From IMG/VR virus record IMGVR_UViG_2877948078_000003: a stretch of DNA of 64,000 nt; one strand, written 5' to 3'. The translations under genes and the position numbers were made by a program. A model generated the notes under the pieces. The model was not told the origin of the DNA, did no database searches, and was given only the letters and a program-made list of their open reading frames with translations. Position 1 is the stretch's first letter; the number at the start of each line of letters is the position of its first letter. Below are positions 3,466 through 50,044 of the stretch, piece by piece. The DNA is from a virus (taxonomy: Duplodnaviria; Heunggongvirae; Uroviricota; Caudoviricetes).

Positions 3466-5556
3466 ATGTATGTCATTGCAAAAGAACTGATTGGCGCGCC
3501 CGGAATGCCTGCTACAACAAAAGGTATTCGCCAGGCATTACAACGTTACGTACAAGGGAAAAGCTGTTGTTCCCGTCGTCGCTCAGGCTCTAAAGCAACT
3601 GAATACAGCATCGACTGTTTACCTGAAGTGACGCAGCAGGCATTACGTGAACGTTATGCCCTGCAACTGATGACGCAAAAAGCCGATGAATCACCGGCTC
3701 CGGTGGTGACAAAGGCCAGACGCTCATCTGACGTGGTTGATGCGGTGGAGGCATATCGCGGATCACCACAACTGATGGTCGAACGCCTCAATGCCCTGAC
3801 TGAAAACCAGCGCCAGGTGGCTGATGCACGAATCGCGATCGTCAGCGAAGTGATGAAAGTCGCGCAACAACCCGGTTTCAGCTGCGCGAAGGCTATCCGG
3901 TTTATCGTTGACAACCTGGCACGTTCACAGCTGGACGAGCGCATTGTGGCAATGGTTGAGACGGCGAACGCCAAAAAGGGAAACAGCCGTGCGTTGAGTG
4001 AAATCACGCTGAAGCGATGGATTGCGGCCTTTAACAAGGCACAGAACGCCGCTGAACGCCTGCTTTTACTGGCACCGGGTAAACGCCAGGAAATAAAAGC
4101 CGAAGATATTAACTGGCTGCCCGAATTTCTGGCGCAGTATCGCCAGTCAAACGGCCGACCAATGACCGAGGCTTACGAGGATTTTGTTGCTGAATGGCAG
4201 CACCGGCACGCTGATGAGCCTTATATGCTCGATATCATGCCCTCTTATGACACCATTCGCCGCGCAATGAAGAAACTGCCGGAAGTGGTGAAACAAAAAG
4301 GCCGGGTGACAGGCAGTGAATACCGTCAGCTTGAGGGATTCACGCGCCGCGACTGGTCCAGAATGCCGGTGAATTATGTCTGGATTGGTGACGGTCACGG
4401 CATGAAGATGAAATGCAGGCACCCGGTTCACGGGCGGCCATTTGCACCGGAAGTGACCTTTGTTATCGACGGTGGCACGCGCTTTGTGGTGGGCTGGAGC
4501 CTTGACCTGGCTGAAAATGTTTTCGCCGTAGCCGGTGCCATACAGCACGGTATTCGCCATCACGGCAAACCGTTTCTGTATTACTCGGATAACGGTTCGG
4601 GGGAAACCGCCGACATCCTGGATAAGGAGGTTGTGGGGATCCTGCCGCGCCTGGGGATTAATCACCCGACAGGGATTGCCGGTAATCCGCAGGGGCGAGG
4701 CATTATCGAACGGCTTAACCGCACATTACCGATGCGCATAGCCCGTAAATACCGCACCTATTTCGGGAAAGGTGCAGATCGCGAGACGTTACGCAAAACC
4801 AACCGCGATTTACGCTCGGCATTCACTGCCCTGCAACAGGACAAACGGCTGAACGCCCGGCAGCAGTCAGCGATGCGTGATTTACCGTCCTGGCCTGAAC
4901 TGATTGATGCCATCCGTGATGGTGTCGAGTGGTACAACAACCGGCCGCACAGCGGATTGCCGGTGAAACCGAACGGTAAGCATTACAGCCCGGCGGAATA
5001 CAGGAAAAAACGCCTGGCAGAAGAGGACACGGAAATTGAATGGCTGTCCGATGTTGAGCTGCGGGATATGTTCCGGCCGATGGTGGAACGCCCGGTAAGA
5101 CGCTGTGAAATACGCTGGCTGAATAATATTTACTACGCGCCCGAGCTGCGTGATGAGCATGGCCGTAAGGTGCTTATCAGCTATGACATTCATGATGCCG
5201 AACGAATTACCGTGCGTCGCCTGGATGGCAGCGTGATTTGCGAGGCGGTATGGGACGGCAATAAACGCGAAGCCTTCCCGGTCAGCGCGGAATACTACAA
5301 ACAGCAGCAACGCCTTAAAGGCATGCGTAAACGCGCAGAGGAAAAAATCCGTGATGCCGAGGATGAGGTGGTCAACGTGCTGGAGCACAAGCCGCAAGAG
5401 CCCTGGCTGGAAAACATCTATCGCCCGGTAGGTAATACGGTGGCCGTTCAGCAACCTGCCGTTGATGATGAGCCTGATGAAGAATACGAGCGTAATTTCC
5501 AGCGGGGATTGCAGTTGCTCGAAGCGAAATTAAAAGAAAATGACCCGCTGGCCTGA
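3466..5556 (+). CDS. A: Mu-type DDE transposase A
   Basis: 696 aa (MuA is ~663 aa); internal DDE-like region (VWIGDGHG ... YYSDNGSGE ... IERLNRTL); position after ner. Confidence 0.9.
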   Translation: MYVIAKELIGAPGMPATTKGIRQALQRYVQGKSCCSRRRSGSKATEYSIDCLPEVTQQALRERYALQLMTQKADESPAPVVTKARRSSDVVDAVEAYRGSPQLMVERLNALTENQRQVADARIAIVSEVMKVAQQPGFSCAKAIRFIVDNLARSQLDERIVAMVETANAKKGNSRALSEITLKRWIAAFNKAQNAAERLLLLAPGKRQEIKAEDINWLPEFLAQYRQSNGRPMTEAYEDFVAEWQHRHADEPYMLDIMPSYDTIRRAMKKLPEVVKQKGRVTGSEYRQLEGFTRRDWSRMPVNYVWIGDGHGMKMKCRHPVHGRPFAPEVTFVIDGGTRFVVGWSLDLAENVFAVAGAIQHGIRHHGKPFLYYSDNGSGETADILDKEVVGILPRLGINHPTGIAGNPQGRGIIERLNRTLPMRIARKYRTYFGKGADRETLRKTNRDLRSAFTALQQDKRLNARQQSAMRDLPSWPELIDAIRDGVEWYNNRPHSGLPVKPNGKHYSPAEYRKKRLAEEDTEIEWLSDVELRDMFRPMVERPVRRCEIRWLNNIYYAPELRDEHGRKVLISYDIHDAERITVRRLDGSVICEAVWDGNKREAFPVSAEYYKQQQRLKGMRKRAEEKIRDAEDEVVNVLEHKPQEPWLENIYRPVGNTVAVQQPAVDDEPDEEYERNFQRGLQLLEAKLKENDPLA

Positions 5557-5627: not shown

Positions 5628-6560
5628 ATGACTGATATTAACGATGTAATCAAGACCATTGATGAACTTATTGATGGCGGCGTACTGACGCAGTATGCCA
5701 TCGCCAGAGAGGCGGGAATTTCCGACGGCACATTATCGGCTTTCCGTAAGGGAAAATATAAAGGCGATAACGCTGCTGTGGCTGCTTCCCTGCGCTCCTG
5801 GTATGAGAACTGGAATAAACAAAGCGCACTGCCGGAACCGCCGCAGTTTGTGGAAACGCAGACAGTCCAGGAGCTGCGCGCACTGTTTCAGGCGGTTCGT
5901 CTGATGGGCTGTATTAACGTTATTGTGGGCGTACCGGGTGTGGGTAAAACGGCCACCGCCCGTAATTACTGCCAGGAGCAACCAAACACCTGGATGATCA
6001 CCCTGTCTCCCGCGCATTCCAGCGTCACGGAGTGTCTGCTGGAGCTGGCCGATGCGCTGGGGATTGATTACACCCGCGCGAACAAAGGGGCATTATCCCG
6101 CGCCATCCGCCGTCGCCTGATGGGAACGCGCGGACTGGTGATTGTGGATGAGGCGGATCATCTTGGTATTGACGGTCTGGAGCAACTCCGGGCAATTCAG
6201 GACGCCACGGGGATCGGGATGGTGCTTATTGGTAACCCGCGCGGACTGTTTAAAGGTGGACGCCGCGCCTTTGATGATTTATCGCGCCTGTTCAGCCGTC
6301 TTGCCCGTACAAAACAACTTCGCAGGGCTAAAAAGGCGGATGTGCTGGCTATTGCCAGGGCATGGGGTATCAGTGGTGAGGCCGAGCTGGCTGTCATGCA
6401 GGCTATTGCTGAAAAACCGGGAGCATTACGTGTTCTGACACATACGCTTAACCAGGCGTGGCTCACAGCCAGCGGTGAAGGCGCGGCGCTGACAGAAAAA
6501 CATATTAATGCGGCCTTTAAAGAGGTTTACACCAACCCTGAATTACTCTCGCAGGTGTGA
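5628..6560 (+). CDS. B: Mu B-type ATPase (transposition target-DNA activator)
   Basis: 310 aa; N-terminal HTH; Walker A GVPGVGKT and Walker B VIVDEADHL; follows A. Confidence 0.85.
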   Translation: MTDINDVIKTIDELIDGGVLTQYAIAREAGISDGTLSAFRKGKYKGDNAAVAASLRSWYENWNKQSALPEPPQFVETQTVQELRALFQAVRLMGCINVIVGVPGVGKTATARNYCQEQPNTWMITLSPAHSSVTECLLELADALGIDYTRANKGALSRAIRRRLMGTRGLVIVDEADHLGIDGLEQLRAIQDATGIGMVLIGNPRGLFKGGRRAFDDLSRLFSRLARTKQLRRAKKADVLAIARAWGISGEAELAVMQAIAEKPGALRVLTHTLNQAWLTASGEGAALTEKHINAAFKEVYTNPELLSQV

Positions 6561-36833: not shown

Positions 36834-38876
36834 ATGACGTCCAAATGGGTTCAACTATCATCAATGCCCGGAAACTTTACCGTTAAAGTTTCCGGTGGTA
36901 CAGCGGCATTTCTTGAGGCTCCCTTTCCTCCGGCTGAAGCGAAAGGAGGAATGACATTTGCTGACTGTCTCATCAGTTTTAATACACGGGATTGCCTGTG
37001 GGTAAGACCAGTATCCGGTGATCCGAGTGTGGAAATTACCGGAGCGGGTATTGGTGCGGTCATTCCGTTAAGTGCTGATGTTGCCGGTACTGCTGAACCG
37101 TCAGACTGGGATAATGCTGAAACACATACCCGTCCGTCAGGAAATGAAACGGCTTCCAGCTCCCCTTCCTGGTATTACGTGGTGGTTCTTGCTGGTCAGT
37201 CAAACGGTATGGCTTACGGTGAAGGTCTGCCACTGCCGGAGACATATGACCGCCCCGAACCGCGTATTATGCAGTTAGCCCGTCGCAGTACAGTCACGCC
37301 GGGAGGTAAAGCCTGTCAGTATAACGACATCATTCTGGCCGACCACTGTCTGCATGATGTGCAGGATATGAGTGGAAAAAATCACCCGAAAGCGGATGTG
37401 GCTAAAGGGCAATATGGCACCGTGAGTCAGGGGCTTCACATTGCCAAAAAACTGCTGCCGTTTATTCCGGCAGATGCGGGGATTCTGCTGGTTCCCTGCT
37501 GTCGTGGCGGTTCTGCATTCACGGCGGGTGCTGACGGCACGTACAGTGACAGCACGGGTGCTTCAGAGGACTCAGCCCGCTGGGGTGTGGATAAGCCGCT
37601 GTATAAGGACTTAATCAGCCGGACAAAAGCGGCACTGGCGAAGAACCCGAAAAACCGCCTGCTTGCTGTGGTGTGGATGCAGGGCGAGTTTGATATTGAT
37701 GCGAAGCCGACGGAGCATTCTGCGCTGTTTCTGGCGATGGTGGAAAAATTCCGCACAGACCTGGCTGAAAAAGCGGAGCAGTGTATTGGTGGCCGGACTG
37801 AAACTGTGCCGTGGATTTGTGGCGATACCACGTATTTCTGGAAAAAGAAAAATGAACCGGCATATCAGGCAATCTATGGCGGCTACAAAAACAAAACAGA
37901 TAAAAACATTCATTTCGTCCCATTAATGACAGATGAAAATGGCGCGAATGTACCCACCAACAATCCGACAGAAGACCCGGATATTGAATCCATTGGTTAT
38001 TACGGCTCAACGTGGCGTAACAGTGCTGCCACCTGGACATCTGCGGACCGGGCCAGCCATTTCAGTGCCTGGGCGCGCCGGGGAATTATTTCCGACCGTC
38101 TGGCCACGGCTGTTCTGACTCACGCAGGGCGAACCACAGTAAAAGCCGATGTTCCATCTTCTGAAACTGATGCGCCAACGCCGTCACCTTCAGAAGCTGA
38201 AACAGTAACCACAACAACACTGCTGTCTTACCGTGCCAGTGAGTCTGAAGGGAAGCTGACCGAACAGGGCTGGAGTGCAGGTGGAGGTAAAGCGGAAATT
38301 GTTGCCGATGAAGGTGCAACAGGTGGTACCGCGATGAAGCTGAGCAAGGAGACAGGAGTGGGGTCATGGTATCTGGAGCATGATGCCGGCACTGGCGCTG
38401 AACTGCTGAAAAATGGCGGTTTAATCAGCTGCCGCTTTAAGGCATCCGGTGAACTGGTAGCAAATCAGTATGTCATTGCTCTTTACTGGCCGGTTTCCTC
38501 TCTGCCGCAGGGTGTCACCCTGACAGGGGATGCAGGGAATAATCTGCTGGCAGCGTTTTACATCCAGACAGATGCAAAAGACCTGAATGTGATGTACCAC
38601 AATGCGAAGGTGGCGACAAACAACCTGAAACTGGGAAGCTTTGGCGCATTTGATAACGAATGGCATACGCTGGCCTTCCGCTTTGCCGGGAATAACAGCC
38701 TTCAGGTGACGCCGGTTATTGATGGTCAGGATGGCACACCGTTCACGCTGACGCAGTCACCGGTCAGTGCCTTTGCGACGGATAAACTGCATGTGACAGA
38801 CATTACCAAAAATGCGACTTACCCCGTGCTGATTGACAGCATTGTGGTGGAAGTGAAAAAAGCGGTAACAGAATAA
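36834..38876 (+). CDS. nanS-p: NanS-p-type sialate O-acetylesterase (SGNH/DUF303 esterase with C-terminal lectin-like domain), cargo inside the Mu-like prophage
   Basis: 680 aa; central block VVVLAGQSNGMAYGEG ... VVWMQGEFD typical of the NanS family; ~75-85% identical over most of its length to the split host-prophage copy but with a different N-terminal ~130 aa. Confidence 0.8.
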   Translation: MTSKWVQLSSMPGNFTVKVSGGTAAFLEAPFPPAEAKGGMTFADCLISFNTRDCLWVRPVSGDPSVEITGAGIGAVIPLSADVAGTAEPSDWDNAETHTRPSGNETASSSPSWYYVVVLAGQSNGMAYGEGLPLPETYDRPEPRIMQLARRSTVTPGGKACQYNDIILADHCLHDVQDMSGKNHPKADVAKGQYGTVSQGLHIAKKLLPFIPADAGILLVPCCRGGSAFTAGADGTYSDSTGASEDSARWGVDKPLYKDLISRTKAALAKNPKNRLLAVVWMQGEFDIDAKPTEHSALFLAMVEKFRTDLAEKAEQCIGGRTETVPWICGDTTYFWKKKNEPAYQAIYGGYKNKTDKNIHFVPLMTDENGANVPTNNPTEDPDIESIGYYGSTWRNSAATWTSADRASHFSAWARRGIISDRLATAVLTHAGRTTVKADVPSSETDAPTPSPSEAETVTTTTLLSYRASESEGKLTEQGWSAGGGKAEIVADEGATGGTAMKLSKETGVGSWYLEHDAGTGAELLKNGGLISCRFKASGELVANQYVIALYWPVSSLPQGVTLTGDAGNNLLAAFYIQTDAKDLNVMYHNAKVATNNLKLGSFGAFDNEWHTLAFRFAGNNSLQVTPVIDGQDGTPFTLTQSPVSAFATDKLHVTDITKNATYPVLIDSIVVEVKKAVTE

Positions 38877-40105: not shown

Positions 40106-40306
40106 ATGTATCGAAACATACGGTGCCGACACTGCAATAAGCTACTGGCACGGGCCAGTTTCAGTTATCTGGAAGTAAAATGTCCGCGCTGTAAAACCCT
40201 CAATCAAATCACATCTCCGAGCGCCACAGAGCACCCCACATACACAAGGAAATCCTGTCGTGGGGAACAGAAAGCAAGTCACATCCCGAATCATCAGCAC
40301 GCCTGA
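40106..40306 (+). CDS. com: Com-like zinc-finger translational activator of mom
   Basis: [31 protein letters not shown] (CxxC ... CxxC) resembles Mu Com; RBS AGGAGG upstream; overlaps the mom start. Confidence 0.7.
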
Positions 40307-40997
40307 ACTTATTCGCTATAACGACAATATCGTTGGTTATGGCTCCCGTGAGTTGCGGGTTGAGACAATAAGTTGCTGGCTGGCCAGACTGGTCATCGTC
40401 AATAAACATTACAGCCACCGTTTCGTAAATAACTCCTACCTTCATCTGGGCATATTTTCAGAACGGGAACTTGTTGGCGTAATGCAATGGGGTTACGCCC
40501 TTAACCCAAACAGTGGTGCACACGTCGTAACGGGTACGCAGAACCGAGAATATATGGAGCTTAACCGGCTATGGCTGCATGACTGTATGCCGAGAAACTC
40601 CGAATCAAGGGCAATCAGTTACGCGCTCAAGCTAATCAGACAGCTTTATCCGCAGGTACAGTGGGTTCAGTCGTTTGCAGATGAGCGTTGTGGCTGTCTT
40701 GGTGTCGTGTATCAGGCAAGCAATTTTGATTATGTAGGCAGCCATGAATCAACATTCTATGAACTTGATGGCGAGTGGTATCACGAGATTTGCAGGAATG
40801 CCATTAAACGAGGCGGACAACGAGGTGAACATCTGAGGGCTAATATCGACAGAGCCAGTGTTCATAAGTTCCGACAGTTTCGTTACATCCGGTTTCTGAA
40901 CAAGAGGGCCAGAAAACGCCTCAACACAAAGCTATTCAAAGTCCAGCCTTACCCAAAACCACAAACTGTTAAAACCGGTTTGAAAGAGATTGGGTGA
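40260..40997 (+). CDS. mom: Mom-like DNA modification protein (anti-restriction adenine modification)
   Basis: 245 aa starting at GTG inside the com 3' end as in Mu; last gene before the right end. Confidence 0.7.
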
Positions 40998-41124: not shown

Positions 41125-41129
41125 ACTCC
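41125..41129. repeat. Right copy of the 5-bp target-site duplication ACTCC
   Basis: Identical to 2240-2244. Confidence 0.6.
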
Positions 41130-42631
41130 GCACCCTGTCCGGCTGCATCATGCTCCAGAAACCAGATGTGGTTTTCCGGTTTGTTCAGTTGCAGAGCCTT
41201 ACCTCCCGTAGCCCCCGCATCACTGACCACCGCTTCAGCAATGTTTTTGTTAACACTGTCTCCGCCCGCCGGTTTGTGATAATAGCGCCAGCCCTGTGAT
41301 GCCAGGTCTTCGCCGGATGCCAGCAGACTCATCAGGGTTCGGTTACTGACCGGGGCTTCCGCCTCTCTCTCCGGACCTTCACCGGAAGGTACGGTGGGCT
41401 TCACCATATCAGGCTGTTTTCCGGTAATGAATTCAGCGGTTCTCCCGGCGTGCACCAGAATCGCCGTTGCCAGACGGTCGGAAATAATCCCCCGGCGTGC
41501 CCAGGTGCTGAAATGGCTCGCCCTGTCCTGTGACGTCCAGGTGGCTGAGCTGTCACGCCATTTCGAACCGTAATACCCGATACCCGGAATGTCCGGGTCT
41601 TCTTCCGGTTTGTTCGTCGGCACATTCACCCCGTTCTCATCCGTCATGAACGGTACGAAATGGATATTCTTTTCCGTTTTGTTTTTATAGCTGCCGTACA
41701 CCGTCTGGTACGTGGATTCGTTCTTCTGCTTCCAGAAATACGTCGTGTCCCCGCATATCCAGGGAACACTGCCAGCAGAGCCACTGACGCACTGGCCTGC
41801 CATATCCGCCAGGTCTGCACGGAATTTATCAACCAGCGCACCAAACTGTGCTGCGTGATTTCCGGGCGTGCCGTCAAAATCAAATTCCCCCTGCATCCAC
41901 ACCACGGCAAACAGCACATTTTTCGGGTTCTTCTTCAGTGCTGCTTTTGTTCGACCGATAAGGTCCTTATACAGCGGCTTGTCCACACCCCAGCGCGCTG
42001 AATTCTCCGAGGCACCGCCAGCGTCACTGTATGTGCCATCAGCTCCGGTGGTGAACGCTGAACCACCACGACAGCACGGAACCAGCAGAATACCCGCATT
42101 CGCCGGTATAAACGGCAGCTGTTTTTTGGCGATATGCAGCCCCTGCCCCACGGTACCGTACTGCCCCTTTGACAGGTCCGCTTTCGGATGGTTAAGGCGG
42201 CTCATGTCCTGCACATCATGCAGACAATGGTCCGCCGGAATGATGTCGTTATATTTGCATGCTGCACCGCCCGGTGTCACCGTACTGCGGCGCGCCAGCT
42301 GCTTAATGCGCGGGTCCGGACGGTCATATGTCTCCGGCAGCGGAAGACCTTCACCATACGACATGCCATTTGACTGCCCTGCCAGAACCACAACAAAGTA
42401 ATACTCCGGGTCGCTGGTGGCACTGACAGCCACCACCTTACCCTCATTACCGGTCACCGCCACTGGTGTGGTGACATCACCTTCCGCCGCAATGGCCTGC
42501 ATCAGGGTATAAGGCGTGATGGCCACCGGACTGCCAAATGGCTGCCAGCCCTCCTTCAGTTTTTGTGTCAGTCGTTCAGCAAGGTCTGACGGCGATGCCG
42601 CCCTGACCACATCGTAGTGTTTAAATGCCAT
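41125..42631 (-). pseudogene. nanS-p: 5' (N-terminal) part of the nanS-p-type esterase gene interrupted by the Mu-like prophage
   Basis: Minus-strand translation from ATG 42631 through ...FLEHDAAGQGAE is NanS-like; beyond 41125 the frame reads through Mu-like end sequence to a fortuitous stop at 41015. Confidence 0.8.
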
Positions 42632-42699: not shown

Positions 42700-42858
42700 T
42701 CACACAGAAAAACAGCCCGCAAAAAAGAAATACGCCCTTACAGTTGCGCAAGGTGATTACTCTAAGGTATTATTAGGGTGCTGAATAAATTACTTCACGT
42801 TTTGTTATTTATTCCTTGCTTCCTTGCCAACCGCTCTTCCCAGGAGCGGTTTTTTTTT
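42700..42858 (+). ncRNA. Candidate small RNA / conserved promoter-terminator module (copy 1)
   Basis: TTGCGC-18 bp-TATTAT promoter-like pair followed ~75 nt later by hairpin CCGCTCTTCCCAGGAGCGG plus T9; a second diverged copy at 45455-45590 keeps the same signals. Confidence 0.3.
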
Positions 42859-42859
42859 A

Positions 42860-43890
42860 CATGTAAAAAGGCTCCTGCGATGAGGAGCCTGGATGTATGC
42901 CTAATCTCTGTATACTGCATGGTGCCGGGTGCCTCCCGGTGAACAAATGTCCGTGATATCAGTCGGCCACACAGGAAATGATACGATATCACCCCTCCGC
43001 ACAGGGGGATTCACCATGCCCGTTTTTTTTAACAAACTCCTCATCAATCAGACAATCATCAACCTCATGAATTGTGAGGAATTTAACATTTCACAACACA
43101 GCCTTTTCCCTGCATAAAAAAGCCCCTCCGGAGAGGGGCTTCGCTACGTGTCTGTTAACCATATGCATGATGCCGGGTGCCTCCCGGTGAGTTCAGTATC
43201 AGCACCTGAACCCGCACAGAAAGGATAGAGTAGAAACACCTGCGCTGATATGCCCCTCCGCTCAGGGGGATTCACCATGCAGAACTTTTTTAACAACTCC
43301 CCGTAAGACAGGCAAGCATCAACCATCTGAACTGTGAGGAATTTAACATTTCACAACACAGCGTTTTTCCTGCATAAAAAAGCCCCTCAGGAGAGGGGCT
43401 GACACTGCGTATCTGTATCATCATGAACATGGTGCCGGGTGCCTCCCGGTGAGTCCAGTCTGGTGTCCCTGAACCCGCGTTTGCATTGCCTACAACAGAA
43501 AAGATGCAAATCACACCAGTCGCCCCTCCGCACAGGGGGATTCACCATGCAGAACTTTTTTAACAACTCCCCCTCAGACAGGCAAGCATCAACCATCTGA
43601 ACTGTGAGGAATTTAACACTTAACAACACAGCCTTTTCCCGCACAAAAAAAGCCCCTCCGGAGAGGGGCCGATCGCTATGTATACACCATAAGCAGCATA
43701 GTGCCGGGTGCCTCCCGGTAGATTCAGCCTGACTACTGAATCTGCGTATTGTGACCATCGCTATGGAGACCATGTCAGACGCCCCTCCGCACAGGGGGAT
43801 TCACTATGCTGGCTCGTTTTTACAAGACTTCCATCGATCAGACAATAGCCCATCAACCGAATTGTGAGTCATTTAACATTTCCATGAGGT
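42860..43890. repeat. Tandem array of four ~250-270-bp non-coding direct repeats with conserved hairpins and a variable core
   Basis: Each unit carries GGTGCCGGGTGCCTCCCGGTGA, CCCCTCCGCACAGGGGGATTCACCATGC, a variable ~40-bp segment, TGTGAGGAATTTAACATTTCACAACACAG and terminator-like AAAAAGCCCCTCCGGAGAGGGGCT; no ORF conserved between units. Confidence 0.7.
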
Positions 43891-44127
43891 AACTGATATC
43901 CAGCTAACAATCATCTACAATGGACGAAGCCAGTTCCAGAACTTGCCCACGGTACAGCAACAACCACTGCATACACATAATTACCACCGGACTCTCTGAA
44001 CCTGCCTACTGGCTAACCCCAGATACAACACCACCAGTCACAAAAGCATCTTATTCTGAAGTACAACTGCCGTGCGGCAGATACTAAAAGCGCCTGTATG
44101 TAACAACATAAATATACAGGATATGTT

Positions 44128-44406
44128 TTATCCACGGGATATAATTTTGATTTCATCAAAACCGTTACTACCTGCAATTCTGTTGTACTCCTGAACAAGA
44201 CTCAGTAACTCCGAATTAGCCGCGGTGAACTCCTCACAGACGTTCCGAAGTGCATCTACATCCAGAAGAACCATCTCCTGACCTGAACGTCGATCAGGGG
44301 TACAAAATAAAACTGTCAGACGACTGAAGACCTTTGTTCGTTCCACATTGACGGCTTCAATACGCTGTAACAGTTGGCTACATCTGATTTTCTCATCAAT
44401 ATTCAC
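44128..44406 (-). CDS. Hypothetical protein (92 aa) downstream of the AraC-family regulator
   Basis: ORF on the cargo strand, AT-rich. Confidence 0.45.
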   Translation of the reverse strand: MNIDEKIRCSQLLQRIEAVNVERTKVFSRLTVLFCTPDRRSGQEMVLLDVDALRNVCEEFTAANSELLSLVQEYNRIAGSNGFDEIKIISRG

Positions 44407-44495
44407 GCAAACACCAAATGATTATAACTTTTTATGCTGAACACATTCAGACTATATCTAATACAGTCAATCAATATATGCCTGATGAAAAAACA

Positions 44496-45221
44496 TCAGA
44501 TAACGTCTGCTTTCTGCAAATATGCATAGCTCTCAGGTGGTGCACCATAATACTGGTGAAATACAGAAATGAAGTAGGACTTACTTGAGTAACCACATTT
44601 TTCCGCTATCGCTTGTCCACACTCTCGCTGGAAACATACAAGATTAACAGCAACACGCATTCGCTCCTCCAGCAACAACCGACTAAAGCTATAACCTTCA
44701 TCCTTAAGTTTTCGCTTCAACAAGCTTTCGCTCATATGCAATTGTAATGCAATCACACCAAGCATCCAGCCTGCCGATATGTCGGTCTGAATTATAGCCC
44801 TTACTTTACAGCTGATATTATTTACAGCACCGGACAAAAATAATGGCAGACGTCTGTCTGTTGCAAATAAGGAGATACATGAAAATGCGGTTATAACAGA
44901 GAAATCCTTCAAAGTATCACTGGATTCACTATGCTGGGTTATTAAAGCCTCCGCCAGTTCCGTATTGTAAATATCAGACATCAAATAAAGAGGCATTTTT
45001 GTCGGTGTATACTCCGTCATTTCACACTCCCTTTCCAGATACTGATTGACGACGCTGTTACTTATATCTGCCATTTTCACTCTGTCGGCATAAGCACAGA
45101 AAAGCCCTCTTATATTTCTGGCAACAAGCATAACACTTCCGGCATCGAGTGAAACTTTTTCTTTTTCAAGAAAAATATCTATCGGATAGCGAATCAGGAC
45201 CACAGAGCAGGCAACATCCAT
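44496..45221 (-). CDS. AraC/XylS-family transcriptional regulator (prophage-encoded, PatE/GadX-like class)
   Basis: 241 aa; C-terminal double HTH of the AraC family (KCGYSSKSYFISVFHQYYGAPPESY); AT-rich. Confidence 0.8.
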   Translation of the reverse strand: MDVACSVVLIRYPIDIFLEKEKVSLDAGSVMLVARNIRGLFCAYADRVKMADISNSVVNQYLERECEMTEYTPTKMPLYLMSDIYNTELAEALITQHSESSDTLKDFSVITAFSCISLFATDRRLPLFLSGAVNNISCKVRAIIQTDISAGWMLGVIALQLHMSESLLKRKLKDEGYSFSRLLLEERMRVAVNLVCFQRECGQAIAEKCGYSSKSYFISVFHQYYGAPPESYAYLQKADVI

Positions 45222-45304
45222 TTTGAATTAACCTGAGCAAAAAGACTTAATACCAGTATATTCCAAAAATGGCATTTTGGGAGATTACTTCTGCAAACCG
45301 CTCC

Positions 45305-45448
45305 CGCTAAATACATCCCTGATTTCCTGCGCAGTCTGTTCAAAACGCCCGGTATCCAGCTCAACGCCAGTTGCACGACGCCCCAGCGCCATCGCTGCTT
45401 TAACTGCCGAACCCTACCCCATGAAGAAATCTGCAACCAGGACACCCG
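45305..45448 (-). pseudogene. 3' remnant of a second N6-adenine methyltransferase gene
   Basis: ~140 bp near-identical to the 3' end of the methyltransferase gene at 46829-46990; homology breaks sharply at 45448/45449 where the promoter-terminator module begins. Confidence 0.55.
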
Positions 45449-45454
45449 GCAGAA

Positions 45455-45590
45455 GGGAGACTACAGCCCGCAATTCGAAAAAGGCCACGCTATTGCGCAG
45501 AGTGATTACTGTCGGGTATTATTCGCCAGTTGAAGTATTACTTCACGTTTTATTGTTTATTCCTTGCCGCCCGCGTCTCCCAGCGCGGGC
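45455..45590 (+). ncRNA. Candidate small RNA / conserved promoter-terminator module (copy 2)
   Basis: Same TTGCGC / TATTAT signals and terminator hairpin GCCCGCGTCTCCCAGCGCGGGC + T7 as copy 1. Confidence 0.3.
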
Positions 45591-45596
45591 TTTTTT

Positions 45597-45860
45597 TGTC
45601 CATAAGAAAGCCCCTCCGGAGAGGGGCTGAAGCCGCATTTCTGTATCACCATGAGCATGGTGCCGGGTGCCTCCCGGTGAGTTCAGCCCGGTGACACCAA
45701 ACCCGCGTATTCTCGCTTACGATCATCAAAGAGATCATACCGTTCACCAGTCGCCCCTCCGCACAGGGGGATTCACCATGCGAAATTTTTTTAACAAATG
45801 CTCAGTCTGACAGGCAACTGTCAACTTACTGAATTGTGAGGGATTTAACACTTCACAGAA
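45597..45860. repeat. Solo fifth copy of the ~260-bp repeat unit
   Basis: Contains all conserved blocks of the array units with its own variable core. Confidence 0.65.
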
Positions 45861-45916
45861 CAATATCTTTCCAGCGCCCCAAAATCATCAGGACAGGAGA
45901 AAATCTTCTCCCCCTG

Positions 45917-46345
45917 TCAGAGTTTAAAATCCAGCACGCCATTTCTAAATGCTTTATATACTCCTGAAGACGGTGGTGATGGTATATCAGCATTCTTTAC
46001 TGCATTCATCGCTTCACGACATAAATCGGGATCACCGCTTTCTCTTTTAACCTGTAGCAGAAGACCATTCGGGGCCATATACATTCTCAGTGAACACTCT
46101 TTTCCTGAATACTTACTCGCATCCTTTAACTGTTCTTCTATGGCTTTCCTGACCTGAATGGCATACTGCCGGATTTCTTCACTGGCATCAGGGGTACGTT
46201 CCGATGAGCTCAAATTTTGCGACTTTATTAATTTATCTGAGTGATACAGAGAAGCATCATGATTATTTGTCGATACATCTTTTGTGCAGCCAGTTGTCAG
46301 ACTGGCTAATATCAAAACAAGAACAGGTACAGCACGGCAATACAT
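45917..46345 (-). CDS. Lipoprotein of unknown function
   Basis: 142 aa; signal peptide with lipobox LTTGC. Confidence 0.6.
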   Translation of the reverse strand: MYCRAVPVLVLILASLTTGCTKDVSTNNHDASLYHSDKLIKSQNLSSSERTPDASEEIRQYAIQVRKAIEEQLKDASKYSGKECSLRMYMAPNGLLLQVKRESGDPDLCREAMNAVKNADIPSPPSSGVYKAFRNGVLDFKL

Positions 46346-46623: not shown

Positions 46624-46700
46624 TGGACCGCCATCGAGGACTCGAACCCCGCGCAGCCAGCTTCGAAGGCTGGCGCTCTATCCCGATGAGCTAATGGCGG
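46624..46700 (-). tRNA. tRNA-Arg (anticodon UCG)
   Basis: Cloverleaf folded by hand: acceptor CCGCCAT/ATGGCGG, D stem GCTC/GAGC, anticodon stem CCAGC/GCTGG with loop CTTCGAA, T loop TTCGAGT, encoded CCA. Confidence 0.85.
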
Positions 46701-46709
46701 TATGTGATA

Positions 46710-46785
46710 TGGTGGCCCTTGCTGGATTTGAACCAGCGACCTGGCGATTATGAGTCGCTCGCTCTCACCACTGAGCTAAAGGGCC
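46710..46785 (-). tRNA. tRNA-Ile2 (anticodon CAU, ileX/ileZ-like); tRNA-Met not excluded
   Basis: GGCCCTTTAGCTCAGTGGTGAGAGC...CTCATAA...GGTTCAAATCC...GGGCCACCA closely resembles E. coli ileX as recalled; anticodon loop CTCATAA. Confidence 0.85.
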
Positions 46786-46825: not shown

Positions 46826-47884
46826 TCATCCATTCTGACTGACTAAATCCTGTACTTCCCTGACCGTCTGCTCAAAACGTTCAGTCTCCAGCTCAACGCC
46901 AGTTGCACGACGCCCCAGCGCCATCGCGGCTTTGACTGTCGAACCCGACCCCATGAAGAAATCTGCAACCAGGTCCCCCGGACGACTGCTCGCGCTGATT
47001 ATCTGCTGCAGCATTTCTGCCGGTTTTTCGCACGGATGTTTCCCGGGATAGTACTGCACCGGTTTATGCGTCCACACATCCGTGTACGGCACCTGCGCCG
47101 TCACGCCAAAATACCGCCGCAGATGCTTATATTCACTCTGCAGTTCCGCATACTGCCGGTTCAGTGAAGTATACGTCTCCAGCAGCTGGTGGTGGGGCTT
47201 TTCCAGTTCACCGCGCTGATGCTTCTCTTCTGCCACCCGGGCAAACAGCGCCTGTAATTTCAGATAATCACTTTCGTTCGGTAGCTGCCACTGACTGGCA
47301 CTGAACCAGTGCGACACCATGTTTTTCTTTCCTGTGGCATCCACTATCTGTTTTGCCGTTATCCCCAGGGCAGCACGCGCATCACGAAAGTAAGCAATCA
47401 GCGGAGCCATCACATGCTGTTTCAGTGCCCTGCCCTTCGCCTCATACCCGGCATCTTTCGGACGATACGGCCCCTGATAATGTTCCGCGAACAGAATGCG
47501 CTCTGTGGCGGGGAAATACGCCCTCAGGCTTTCCTTGTTGCACCCGTTCCAGCGTCCGGACGGCTTCGCCCAGATAATATGGTTCAGCACACTGAAGCGT
47601 TCACGCATCATGATTTCGATATCAGATGCCAGGCGATGGCCACAGAACAGGTAAAGACTTCCGGCAGGTTTCAGCACCCGCCAGAACTGCGCCAGACACT
47701 GGTCCAGCCATTTCAGGTAATCCTCATCACCCGTCCACTGGTTATCCCAGCCCTCAGGCTTCACTTTAAAGTACGGCGGGTCCGTGACTATCAGGTCAAC
47801 AGAATTTTCGGGTAACGACCGGATAAATTCCAGGCAGTCGGCGTTGATTAACTCACAACTGGATATTTTTACAGTATTAAACAT
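46826..47884 (-). CDS. DNA N6-adenine (or N4-cytosine) methyltransferase, orphan
   Basis: 352 aa; DPPY motif (IVTDPPYF) near the N-terminus and FxGxG (FFMGSGST) near the C-terminus; no adjacent restriction endonuclease. Confidence 0.85.
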   Translation of the reverse strand: MFNTVKISSCELINADCLEFIRSLPENSVDLIVTDPPYFKVKPEGWDNQWTGDEDYLKWLDQCLAQFWRVLKPAGSLYLFCGHRLASDIEIMMRERFSVLNHIIWAKPSGRWNGCNKESLRAYFPATERILFAEHYQGPYRPKDAGYEAKGRALKQHVMAPLIAYFRDARAALGITAKQIVDATGKKNMVSHWFSASQWQLPNESDYLKLQALFARVAEEKHQRGELEKPHHQLLETYTSLNRQYAELQSEYKHLRRYFGVTAQVPYTDVWTHKPVQYYPGKHPCEKPAEMLQQIISASSRPGDLVADFFMGSGSTVKAAMALGRRATGVELETERFEQTVREVQDLVSQNG

Positions 47885-48406: not shown

Positions 48407-49120
48407 TTAACGTACTCTGACAGTATTAATTTCAAAATCATTAATATTTCCGCTATTAAATATAACGAATTTCTTACCCCCACTCCTGTATGATTTCGAT
48501 AACACCAGACGATCATCATAGCGCGCAATAATGTAATACCATACATTCTCATAGTGGACCGCCTGATATTCCCTCTTAAACTGTGGTTTGTACCAACCGG
48601 CAATAAGAGAGAATGCCCAGAAATAAATCATAAACCCAGCCATCATGAACTCAATTCGGTGATGGCGAATAATAGACATTTCCGAAAAACATTTGACTGA
48701 AACAAGTCTTCTTCCAGACCTGACAAAAAGCGTGATTGCAAAGGCAGCAAGAACGCAGAAAATCAGTACATCTGGCTCAACATGCTGATGAATTACAGAA
48801 AACTCCAGAACAGGTGGAATAAAAAGCAGCAATATCGCGAGAAAAAGCCGGATAAAACTCAAATTTTGTATATTGCGCTTTTGTTTTATGCCCAAAAAGA
48901 AAACAATACCAACTCCCCATCCAATAAGGAATATAACAATAACTGTCACAGCATAAAACAAACTTCGTGCTACATCATCGACACCAGCCCCGACAACCCA
49001 CCATGGAAAGCCATAGTAAAATGAAGTACCCCACCCATAGAAATAAGCGCTCCCCCATCCGAGACAGCCCATATAAGCAACAAAAAGTGAAGAGTTTCTG
49101 AGCAGAGCACTGTCATCCAT
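48407..49120 (-). CDS. Multi-pass integral membrane protein, AT-rich cargo gene directly downstream of Q
   Basis: 237 aa; ~5 predicted TM helices in the N-terminal 160 aa plus a soluble C-terminal ~70 aa; local GC far below the prophage average. Confidence 0.6.
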   Translation of the reverse strand: MDDSALLRNSSLFVAYMGCLGWGSAYFYGWGTSFYYGFPWWVVGAGVDDVARSLFYAVTVIVIFLIGWGVGIVFFLGIKQKRNIQNLSFIRLFLAILLLFIPPVLEFSVIHQHVEPDVLIFCVLAAFAITLFVRSGRRLVSVKCFSEMSIIRHHRIEFMMAGFMIYFWAFSLIAGWYKPQFKREYQAVHYENVWYYIIARYDDRLVLSKSYRSGGKKFVIFNSGNINDFEINTVRVR

Positions 49121-49372: not shown

Positions 49373-50044
49373 CTATGAAAATGCCGCCTTTTGTTTTGAA
49401 CGTGTTCCCTCCACCAACAATAAAGCTTCACTATCCAGCCGATGAAAAATGTGTTTCATTGCAACCCAGTGACCAGTAAATGTCTTGGACCAGTTTTTGG
49501 TTGTTACTCCCACCAGTAACGCCAGTTCCTGGTATTCGTAACCTTCCCCACCAAAAAGCTCAGCTTTTACCGCCTGCGCCGCCAACCAGATCAACGTCTT
49601 CAGGCGCACCAGAGTTTTTCCTGCAATTTTTCTGGTACCGGATTGAGCATTAAATTCAGTCCACGCCCACTGCGTTATCGCGATCTGATGCTCCCAGCAA
49701 ATGCTACCGCTGTAACACCACAGCAGCCAGGCTTTATGATGTTCTTCAAGAGACAGAACGGCGCGTCGCCATGATGATGTCGAAAACTCAACCGGACTGA
49801 CCAGGGCAATTGATGAGCCTTTCGCCAGTGATTGTTTACCCGGGATCGGGGGATTATCCCGCGTGATCATTTTTCCGGTTACCTCATCGCGGTAACGAAT
49901 TTTTTTGCGTCTGTAACGCCCTGTATCGAACAGGGCATTTTCCTGCCAGACTTCCAGCTGGCCTTTTGTCGACCCACTAAGATCCGCAGTGGCAATCATG
50001 AGTTGCTCACGAACAAACTGTAAATACTGGTTATTCATGCACAC
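49373..50044 (-). CDS. Putative antitermination protein Q (long Q family)
   Basis: 223 aa located directly after rusA as in DLP12/Qin-type prophages; assignment rests mainly on position. Confidence 0.55.
   Translation of the reverse strand: MCMNNQYLQFVREQLMIATADLSGSTKGQLEVWQENALFDTGRYRRKKIRYRDEVTGKMITRDNPPIPGKQSLAKGSSIALVSPVEFSTSSWRRAVLSLEEHHKAWLLWCYSGSICWEHQIAITQWAWTEFNAQSGTRKIAGKTLVRLKTLIWLAAQAVKAELFGGEGYEYQELALLVGVTTKNWSKTFTGHWVAMKHIFHRLDSEALLLVEGTRSKQKAAFS

Follow-up and report, generated by a model that had tools for sequence, protein, structure and literature searches.

We asked what is encoded in, and what could be the role of, an AT-rich island in a lambdoid prophage (IMG/VR record IMGVR_UViG_2877948078_000003, Caudoviricetes), of which a stretch of 64,000 nucleotides (nt), here called the window, was analysed. 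At positions 44128 to 46345 the island carries genes for an AraC-type regulator, for a lipoprotein and for a protein of 92 amino acids (aa). An earlier reading of this DNA, made from the sequence alone (the sequence-only reading), took the three genes for one regulatory module directed at the host. As an explanation of the region as a whole, we think best of a patchwork of accessory ("moron") genes in a variable slot, whose parts act separately, and on balance we lean towards it. The more interesting element of the island is the lipoprotein, a member of a TolA-domain family that is widespread, bears the wrong label in databases and has apparently not been studied.

The three genes are:

45917..46345, - strand: 142-aa TolA-domain-III lipoprotein gene (PF06519; lipobox)
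44496..45221, - strand: 241-aa Psr-type AraC/XylS regulator gene, intact (HTH_18 and HTH_AraC; phrog_1450)
44128..44406, - strand: 92-aa open reading frame, GTG start (phrog_2873)

All three open reading frames were confirmed where they had been reported, on the late-operon strand of the lambdoid prophage, and none of them is a chance frame. The block is indeed AT-rich: the GC content is 0.37-0.44 over the three genes, compared with 0.52-0.59 in the flanking methylase and nanS-p (sialate O-acetylesterase) genes. A spike of 0.50-0.54 at 45250-45850 corresponds to a methylase remnant and a small RNA (sRNA) gene.

The TolA-like lipoprotein

The lipoprotein had been described as an orphan and as a part of the regulatory module, and neither description could be upheld. 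It matches TolA_C (PF06519, E=5.7e-23), with a TolA domain III (TolAIII) at residues ~54-141 that aligns without gaps to residues 336-420 of K-12 TolA, at 53% identity over the whole domain and with both disulfide cysteines kept. Structures of TolAIII (PDB 1S62, 3QDP/3QDR, 2X9A, 1TOL) are matched at E~1e-25 (1S62/3QDP ~2e-25). On the other hand, no stretch of the lipoprotein aligns to TolA 1-335. The transmembrane domain I, responsible for TolQ-TolR coupling, is not present, residues 1-20 being a cleavable lipoprotein signal, and neither is the helical domain II, rich in Ala, Lys and Glu (the lipoprotein has 142 aa, TolA 421). Furthermore, a comparison with K-12 places the gene outside the tolQRA-tolB-pal cluster, in the late region of a prophage. 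For these reasons the lipoprotein, judged by its sequence, carries TolA domain III and yet is not TolA. It is a prophage-encoded copy of the domain with a lipid anchor in place of domains I and II, and therefore an envelope-directed role is indicated.

The export signal consists of R4, a hydrophobic stretch at residues 5-16 and the lipobox LTTG-C20 with Thr at +2 (predicted lipidation). Though the signal peptides of 18 homologues differ otherwise (for example IIIGC or LTAGC), G19-C20-T21 is invariant among them. The absence of Asp at +2 suggests sorting of the lipoprotein to the outer membrane. Residues 21-52 form a low-complexity linker of ~35 residues, rich in Ser, Thr, Asn and Asp; it is predicted to be disordered, as the AlphaFold2 predicted local distance difference test (pLDDT) score is <50 for residues 1-52.

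We compared the domain with the published interfaces of TolA. The beta3 residues L417, D418, F419 and K420 of TolA are used for beta-strand addition by the phage protein g3p, by colicin N (ColN) and by TolB (PMC4339652, PMC3365938), and all four are identical in the lipoprotein (L138, D139, F140 and K141). The colicin A (ColA) strand 375-LLDIKP-380 of TolA becomes LLQVKR, with K379 and K396 kept. According to the interface papers (PMC3365938/PMC4339652), TolA binds TolB weakly (~40 uM) and ColN more tightly (~1 uM, about 40-fold).

Since this short protein passes the cut-off of TIGR02794, the model for full-length TolA (75.9 bits, cut-off 59.45), it bears the name tolA in RefSeq, and this wrong name obscures the family in databases. 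The PGAP product for the 142-aa gene is "cell envelope integrity protein TolA", and in some genomes (E14) the intact gene is flagged as a partial pseudogene. Thus, ~900 complete genomes appear to carry two tolA genes.

The family is present in 897 of 5426 complete E. coli genomes, in phage mEp460_ev081 and in at least 125 IMG/VR prophage contigs. In a scan of one genome per species, a close relative elsewhere was found only in Shigella flexneri; within the reach of that scan, the family appears to be confined to Escherichia/Shigella prophages. Its position is always the slot between Q and the holin gene. In PHROGs the family is phrog_5772, function unknown, and a literature search (subscription journals being outside its coverage) found no functional study of a prophage TolA-like protein. 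In Qin-like prophages and mEp460, a second TolA-domain lipoprotein (~25% identity, lipobox VAGC) stands directly after the first and before the holin gene, for example at L021:5547-5921 (E. coli E14) and L010:8113-8508 (phage mEp460_ev081); the window prophage is without this paralogue.

The regulator and the 92-aa protein

The assignment of the 241-aa protein to the AraC/XylS family was borne out. It has the C-terminal double helix-turn-helix (HTH) DNA-binding domain of the family, with PF12833 HTH_18 at 47.5 bits (cut-off 33.6) and PF00165 HTH_AraC at 41.4 bits (cut-off 26.6) at residues 158-232, and it matches phrog_1450 (E=8e-92). It is full-length and not a pseudogene, being 99% identical to an intact 241-aa cluster of 204 members, and a conserved N-terminus, M-x-x-x-C-S-V, confirms its start codon. 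The next relatives beyond its own cluster are E. coli proteins of 237-240 aa with 56-62% identity.

The sequence-only reading had proposed a comparison with PatE, PsrA and GadX, which places the protein in the prophage AraC group. A review (PMC10877973) puts PsrB (z2104) in OI-57 and PatE (z0321) in OI-8. EDL933_RS10010 is the sole AraC gene of EDL933 CP-933O (OI-57), between the Q region and tRNA-Ile/tRNA-Arg, and ECs_0287 is the sole regulator at the end of Sakai Sp1; we refer to them as the PsrB and PatE candidates. The regulator is 58% identical to the PsrB candidate (237 aa) over 239 aa, where it should be noted that no identity threshold defines the Psr family. The identity is 46% in the N-terminal half and 73% in the DNA-binding half, and the two HTH stretches are identical at 19/23 and 19/24 positions. 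Full-length alignments give 37% identity to the PatE candidate, 35% to GadW and 31% to YdeO, whereas GadX aligns in the C-terminal half only (41%). The best full-length NCBIfam match is YdeO, with 120 bits against an equivalog cut-off of 348, and the GadX model gives 93 bits against 500. It shares family and domain order with PatE (Z0321), GadW, GadX and YdeO, and is an orthologue of none of them.

By these comparisons the regulator is probably a distinct member of the Psr group; of the characterised proteins, the PsrB candidate is closest to it, and the PatE candidate follows at a distance. Judging from the identities in the HTH stretches, it probably reads DNA sites similar to those of PsrB. 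Like PsrA and PsrB of E. coli O157:H7, which have ~240 aa, the same C-terminal domain and the same N-terminal motif, it is encoded downstream of Q near tRNA genes in a lambdoid prophage (the late region here, and IMG/VR prophage contigs). There are differences as well. PsrA and PsrB are ~90% identical to each other, and the regulator of the window forms a separate branch. While in PsrB-type phages the psr gene precedes the tRNAs, here it follows them, behind a methylase remnant. Unlike PsrA and PsrB, the regulator is carried mainly by non-O157 Shiga toxin-producing E. coli (STEC; O22:H8, O43, O174:H2 UC4224), and it would extend the Psr/PatE group of prophage regulators to these serotypes. The profile of the Psr family also includes a link to type III effector loci and Pch/PerC regulators on the same prophage, and a lowering of type III secretion; the tail end of the present prophage, the usual site of effector genes, is outside the window. 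Two points weigh against this placement: both reference genes were chosen by prophage and locus, so that their labels are inferred (hence "candidate"), and PsrA was not located, as neither annotation nor tblastn reveals an AraC gene in Sakai Sp6 or in EDL933 CP-933N, the OI-50 location given by the review.

A match at E=1e-46 links the 92-aa protein to phrog_2873. Even at 23-38% identity, homologues have the same length and N-terminus and share the motifs R23, P37-D38, N64 and Y74-N75. With this match and these homologues, the possibility that the reading frame is spurious was rejected. RefSeq annotates no gene at this position in the records compared, and a Pfam search with ten family members gave no match. 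From these comparisons we conclude that the protein represents a conserved, mostly unannotated family. The AlphaFold2 model is confident (mean pLDDT 89.9) and consists of two long helices with a small beta-hairpin joint; in the cell, the protein would be a cytoplasmic coiled-coil hairpin. A fold search of the PDB with this model found no match at E<=0.001 (best prefoldin-beta, E=0.067, and TraM, E=0.33). Most homologues have no AraC neighbour and adjoin TolA-like genes in Qin-like prophages. In some draft and read-assembly contigs (L104-L108), the 89 nt that separate the AraC gene from the 92-aa gene are interrupted by an IS3-family element, directly at the start codon of the latter, and there the gene callers extend the reading frame to 119 aa.

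Assembly of the island

In the direction of transcription, the three genes are downstream of Q, the methylase and the tRNAs, and upstream of nanS-p, whose start is at 42631. The other features of this region are:

49373..50044, - strand: late antiterminator Q (PF06323 Phage_antiter_Q, E=1.3e-90); defines the late operon reading towards the island
46826..47884, - strand: intact N6/N4 DNA methyltransferase (PF01555, E=6.9e-44)
46710..46785, - strand: tRNA, anticodon CAT (ARAGORN: Met; RefSeq, identical gene: tRNA-Ile)
46624..46700, - strand: tRNA-Arg (TCG), tRNA call
45598..45810, - strand: STnc100 copy 5 (Rfam RF02076, 172 bits), with its own terminator hairpin at 45628-45609
45285..45449, - strand: 3'-end remnant of a second DNA methyltransferase gene (repeat D5; 88-91% match to the methylase 3' end; RefSeq pseudogene in L001, L022)
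43970..45257, - strand: cassette with the AraC and 92-aa genes, 1.29 kb, a unit that only some of the prophages, otherwise 94-96% identical, contain
42859-43048, 43110-43308, 43370-43579 and 43643-43838, - strand: STnc100 tandem array, four copies (119-142 bits each; repeat families D1-D3)
41125..42631, - strand: nanS-p, N-terminal part (PF08410 and PF03629), interrupted by a Mu-like prophage

The tRNA with the CAT anticodon is presumably of the lysidine-modified Ile2 type, as in the ileZ-argN-argO set of Stx phages. In those phages, stx occupies the equivalent slot between the Q-side tRNAs and nanS-p. For example, in phage phiSTEC1575-Stx2k a Psr-type gene (58.6% identity) is found directly before the tRNAs, as in EDL933 CP-933O, and stx2AB (stx2k) after them. 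The TolA-like gene is thus at the position of stxAB, so that in some STEC prophages it occupies the slot that holds the Shiga toxin in related phages, and the methyltransferase (46826-47884) is at the position of psr in PsrB-type phages (context comparison with L006, L011 and L018). With the slots of stx and other morons downstream of Q, the window shares the order (Q, tRNAs, cargo, STnc100, nanS-p, lysis), the low GC and the presence/absence variation among related phages; unlike the stx slot of Stx phages, it carries as cargo a TolA mimic and a regulator cassette, and no toxin. Of the hallmarks of morons we see the atypical composition, the presence or absence between related phages and the terminators, while promoter-like sites are not above chance.

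The repeat copies in which the sequence-only reading saw the genes embedded are there, and they are five STnc100 sRNA genes (Rfam RF02076), all on the - strand and within 3 kb. They score 119-172 bits, with a gathering threshold of 47 bits, and each match spans model positions 1-206. Four of them form the array, head-to-tail with a period of 260-270 nt. The fifth begins 106 nt past the stop codon of the TolA-like gene. A similar location, 75 nt after stx2B, has been described for an STnc100 copy in Stx2 phages (PMC12370729), and copy 5 might, like that one, be an sRNA derived from a 3' untranslated region. Since copies of the related Pas sRNA families are reported to be dispersed and not tandem (2026 preprint), the tandem array may be unusual. 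A stretch of ~105 nt that follows an STnc100 copy is present twice (45493-45597 and 42744-42857), which suggests that the repeats, besides being sRNA genes, probably offer repeated homology and act as recombination joints for the shuffling of cassettes.

To see how the island was put together, we compared the window with 80 prophage contigs carrying the TolA-like gene; contigs that were too short were left unclassified. The most common arrangement (34 loci) is the TolA-like gene followed by its second paralogue and the holin gene. In 24 loci, a homologue of the 92-aa gene and a DUF3927 gene precede the TolA-like gene, then come the paralogue and the holin gene. The arrangement of the window was found in seven loci. 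In five, the methylase, the TolA-like gene and nanS-p follow each other with nothing between, and in another five the order is TolA-like gene (94%), nanS-p and holin.

Two pairwise alignments are particularly informative. In prophage L029, window position 45438 is joined directly to ~42690, so that 2.75 kb are absent, and the methylase remnant marks the start of the DNA that the window has in addition. The alignment with prophage L039 runs from 48300 to 45252 and resumes at 43972; exactly 43970-45257 is absent, while the remnant and the sRNA array are present. The microhomology at the L039 junction is only 2-3 nt. Since these absences are nested, the alignments resolve the island into three nested layers. 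The backbone would comprise the methylase, the tRNAs, the TolA-like lipoprotein, one STnc100 gene and nanS-p. The second layer would be another "post-Q" segment, acquired from a different phage, which starts inside the methylase 3' end and brings the STnc100 array, and the last one the 1.29-kb cassette with the AraC and 92-aa genes. The nested variants show how cassettes rebuild the stx slot, the repeated sRNA genes apparently being the joints.

At least 80% of the window segment 43800-46650 is present in 79 of the 5426 complete genomes, mostly of bovine and human STEC isolates. Strain 2013C-3181, for example, has identical alleles and the same island, together with an intact nanS-p and lysis cassette. 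The module formed by a 92-aa homologue, DUF3927, an STnc100-like element and two TolA-like genes was seen in 359 complete genomes. A further arrangement, psr-tRNA-TolA-like (L016-L020, e.g. L018), occurs in draft and metagenome contigs and in none of the 5426 complete genomes. In these same prophages, as in the window, a 237-aa multi-pass membrane protein (48407-49120, - strand) is encoded between Q and the methylase; it had no Pfam match in our scan, and a homologue is labelled PF27470 TfpB in precomputed tables.

Possible functions and the state of the late operon

From the anatomy, the homologies and the presence/absence variants described so far, we infer possible functions of the genes. 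By analogy with PsrA, PsrB and PatE, the regulator would act on the GAD acid-fitness island, binding AT-rich promoters there (gadE, hdeA), and make the lysogen more acid-resistant. The review (PMC10877973) reports binding of PsrB to the promoters of hdeA and gadE, and an increase of GadE and YhiF by PsrA/B. We consider it fairly probable that the regulator acts like PsrB/PatE on this island, and to this extent the host-directed role seen by the sequence-only reading is reasonable. In non-O157 STEC, the likely payoff would be acid resistance and not the control of type III secretion.

After export and lipidation at Cys20, the lipoprotein would come to lie at the inner face of the outer membrane and display there, as a decoy, a copy of TolA domain III without a motor. 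Incoming group A colicins and the g3p of filamentous phages would be caught by their TolA-binding segments before they reach the energised TolA, and the lysogen would become tolerant to both. Because ColN binds TolA more tightly than TolB does, the decoy would take up invaders in preference to the housekeeping partner; in large amounts it might bind the N-terminus of TolB as well and loosen Tol-Pal. Known envelope proteins of resident phages, such as Llp of T5, Cor of phi80 and N15 (against FhuA) and g3p of Ff phages (which occupies TolA), block entry routes. As in our proposal, they are small exported or lipid-anchored phage proteins that shut an uptake pathway; they bind and block the host receptor, however, whereas the lipoprotein is a copy of a host protein and would be a bait for the invader, and no resemblance in sequence is expected. 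Levengood-Freyermuth and colleagues (J Bacteriol, 1993) reportedly observed colicin tolerance and leakiness when TolAIII was exported to the periplasm of wild-type E. coli. We propose the interception of TolA-binding colicins and g3p by an outer-membrane-tethered TolAIII tentatively, and still a little more cautiously the wider claim that it is the first natural "translocon decoy", that is, a TolA C-terminal domain captured by a prophage and soaking up TolA-dependent invaders.

Several observations speak against parts of this explanation. The Thr at the -3 position of the lipobox in the window allele is atypical. The AlphaFold2 model of the lipoprotein (18-sequence alignment) is poor, with a pLDDT of 52.6, and the fold assignment therefore rests on the sequence. 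K368 of TolA, the cation-pi partner of the essential ColA residue Tyr58 (PMC4339652, PMC3365938, PMC7391070), is replaced by Tyr, His or Asn in the lipoprotein family, and for this reason ColA itself may not be bound. PADLOC has no model that matches any of the 142-, 241- and 92-aa proteins. Finally, promoter-like sites are not enriched (7 found, 8.5 expected in shuffled sequence), and the site that precedes the TolA-like gene (46505-46476) matches at only 9/12 positions. Without an excess of promoters, the scan cannot separate expression in the lysogen from late Q-dependent read-through.

It is this read-through that the most serious alternative builds on. The lipoprotein might serve the phage, as a Q-dependent late product that competes for the TolB N-terminus, turns Tol-Pal off and weakens the outer membrane, thereby aiding lysis or vesicle formation. 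The gene is always between Q and the holin and lysis genes on the late strand, the scan gave it no convincing promoter, the beta3 strand to which TolB binds is the same as in TolA, and a review of Tol-Pal (PMC7391070) suggests that altered TolB-TolA contacts could regulate vesicle production. However, spanins already act on the outer membrane at lysis (Rz is encoded in this prophage), and the low TolA-TolB affinity (~40 uM) would require high copy numbers. In addition, the gene is retained in defective Qin-like remnants and in this Mu-interrupted late operon, which fits a benefit for the lysogen better. We therefore regard a role in lysis as rather improbable. That all genes are decaying prophage junk with no current function is very improbable, although damage is evident in the prophage, whose nanS-p is split by a 38.9-kb Mu-like prophage, in the methylase remnant within the island and in some relatives, which have insertion sequence (IS) elements or truncated TolA-like genes. 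None of the three reading frames is interrupted, either here or in ~80 complete genomes (>=95% identity); within each family, length and motifs persist at identities of 23-67%, and the lipobox, the cysteines and the beta3 strand are conserved.

Two further alternatives concern the links between the genes. In the single host-directed module of the sequence-only reading, the lipoprotein, the 92-aa protein and the chromosomal acid-resistance and virulence regulons would all be under the control of the AraC protein. The common strand and low GC agree with this, as do the AraC and 92-aa alleles, which always occur together, and the lineage L016-L020, in which Psr-type and TolA-like genes also flank the tRNAs. 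Nevertheless, the TolA-like gene is found without the other two in at least eight window-type contigs (L028, L029, L039 and related ones) and in ~60 Qin-like loci, an sRNA gene with terminators and the methylase remnant stand between the TolA-like and AraC genes, and the L018 arrangement is, as mentioned, missing from the complete genomes. A single operon under the AraC protein was rejected on the grounds of this separate occurrence and of the intervening terminators and remnant, and a single module as such seems quite unlikely to us. Alternatively, only the 1.29-kb cassette could be a functional unit, a two-component switch in which the 92-aa protein is the partner of the AraC protein, e.g. 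a TraM-like anti-activator. Both genes are gained and lost together, the pair stays together even with an IS element between, and the helical hairpin of the model resembles TraM in the TraR-TraM complex (TM 0.71). The TraM match is not significant, though: helical hairpins are generic, and prefoldin-beta matches equally weakly. Moreover, 92-aa homologues (57% identity) occur after tRNAs, beside DUF3927 and TolA-like genes and away from any AraC gene (mEp460 and the 359 complete genomes), and PsrB-type genes have no neighbour of the 92-aa type, so that we find such a partnership unlikely.

If the lipoprotein does protect lysogens from colicins or filamentous phages as a decoy, this would be a natural defence principle new to description, in which the bait is a copy of a host uptake protein. 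Colicin- and phage-tolerant decoy lysogens would then make up about one in six E. coli (about 16% of the complete genomes). Such protection would also bear on the use of colicins against STEC in cattle.

The Mu-like prophage (2245-41124) has a MuA-like transposase (3466-5556), MuB (5628-6560) and Mom (40260-40997), and it lies inside nanS-p. The uninterrupted nanS-p of strain 2013C-3181 aligns to 42945-41125 and 2244-1161 of the window with an overlap of 5 nt, that is, a 5-bp target duplication. Due to this insertion, the lysis genes for lysozyme (659-1192) and Rz (225-677) are separated from Q by 39 kb. Near its right end, ~2 kb from the interrupted nanS-p, the Mu-like prophage itself encodes a nanS-like esterase of 680 aa (36834-38876, + strand), with a SASA esterase domain and DUF6645, the same domain pair as in the C-terminal part of nanS-p.

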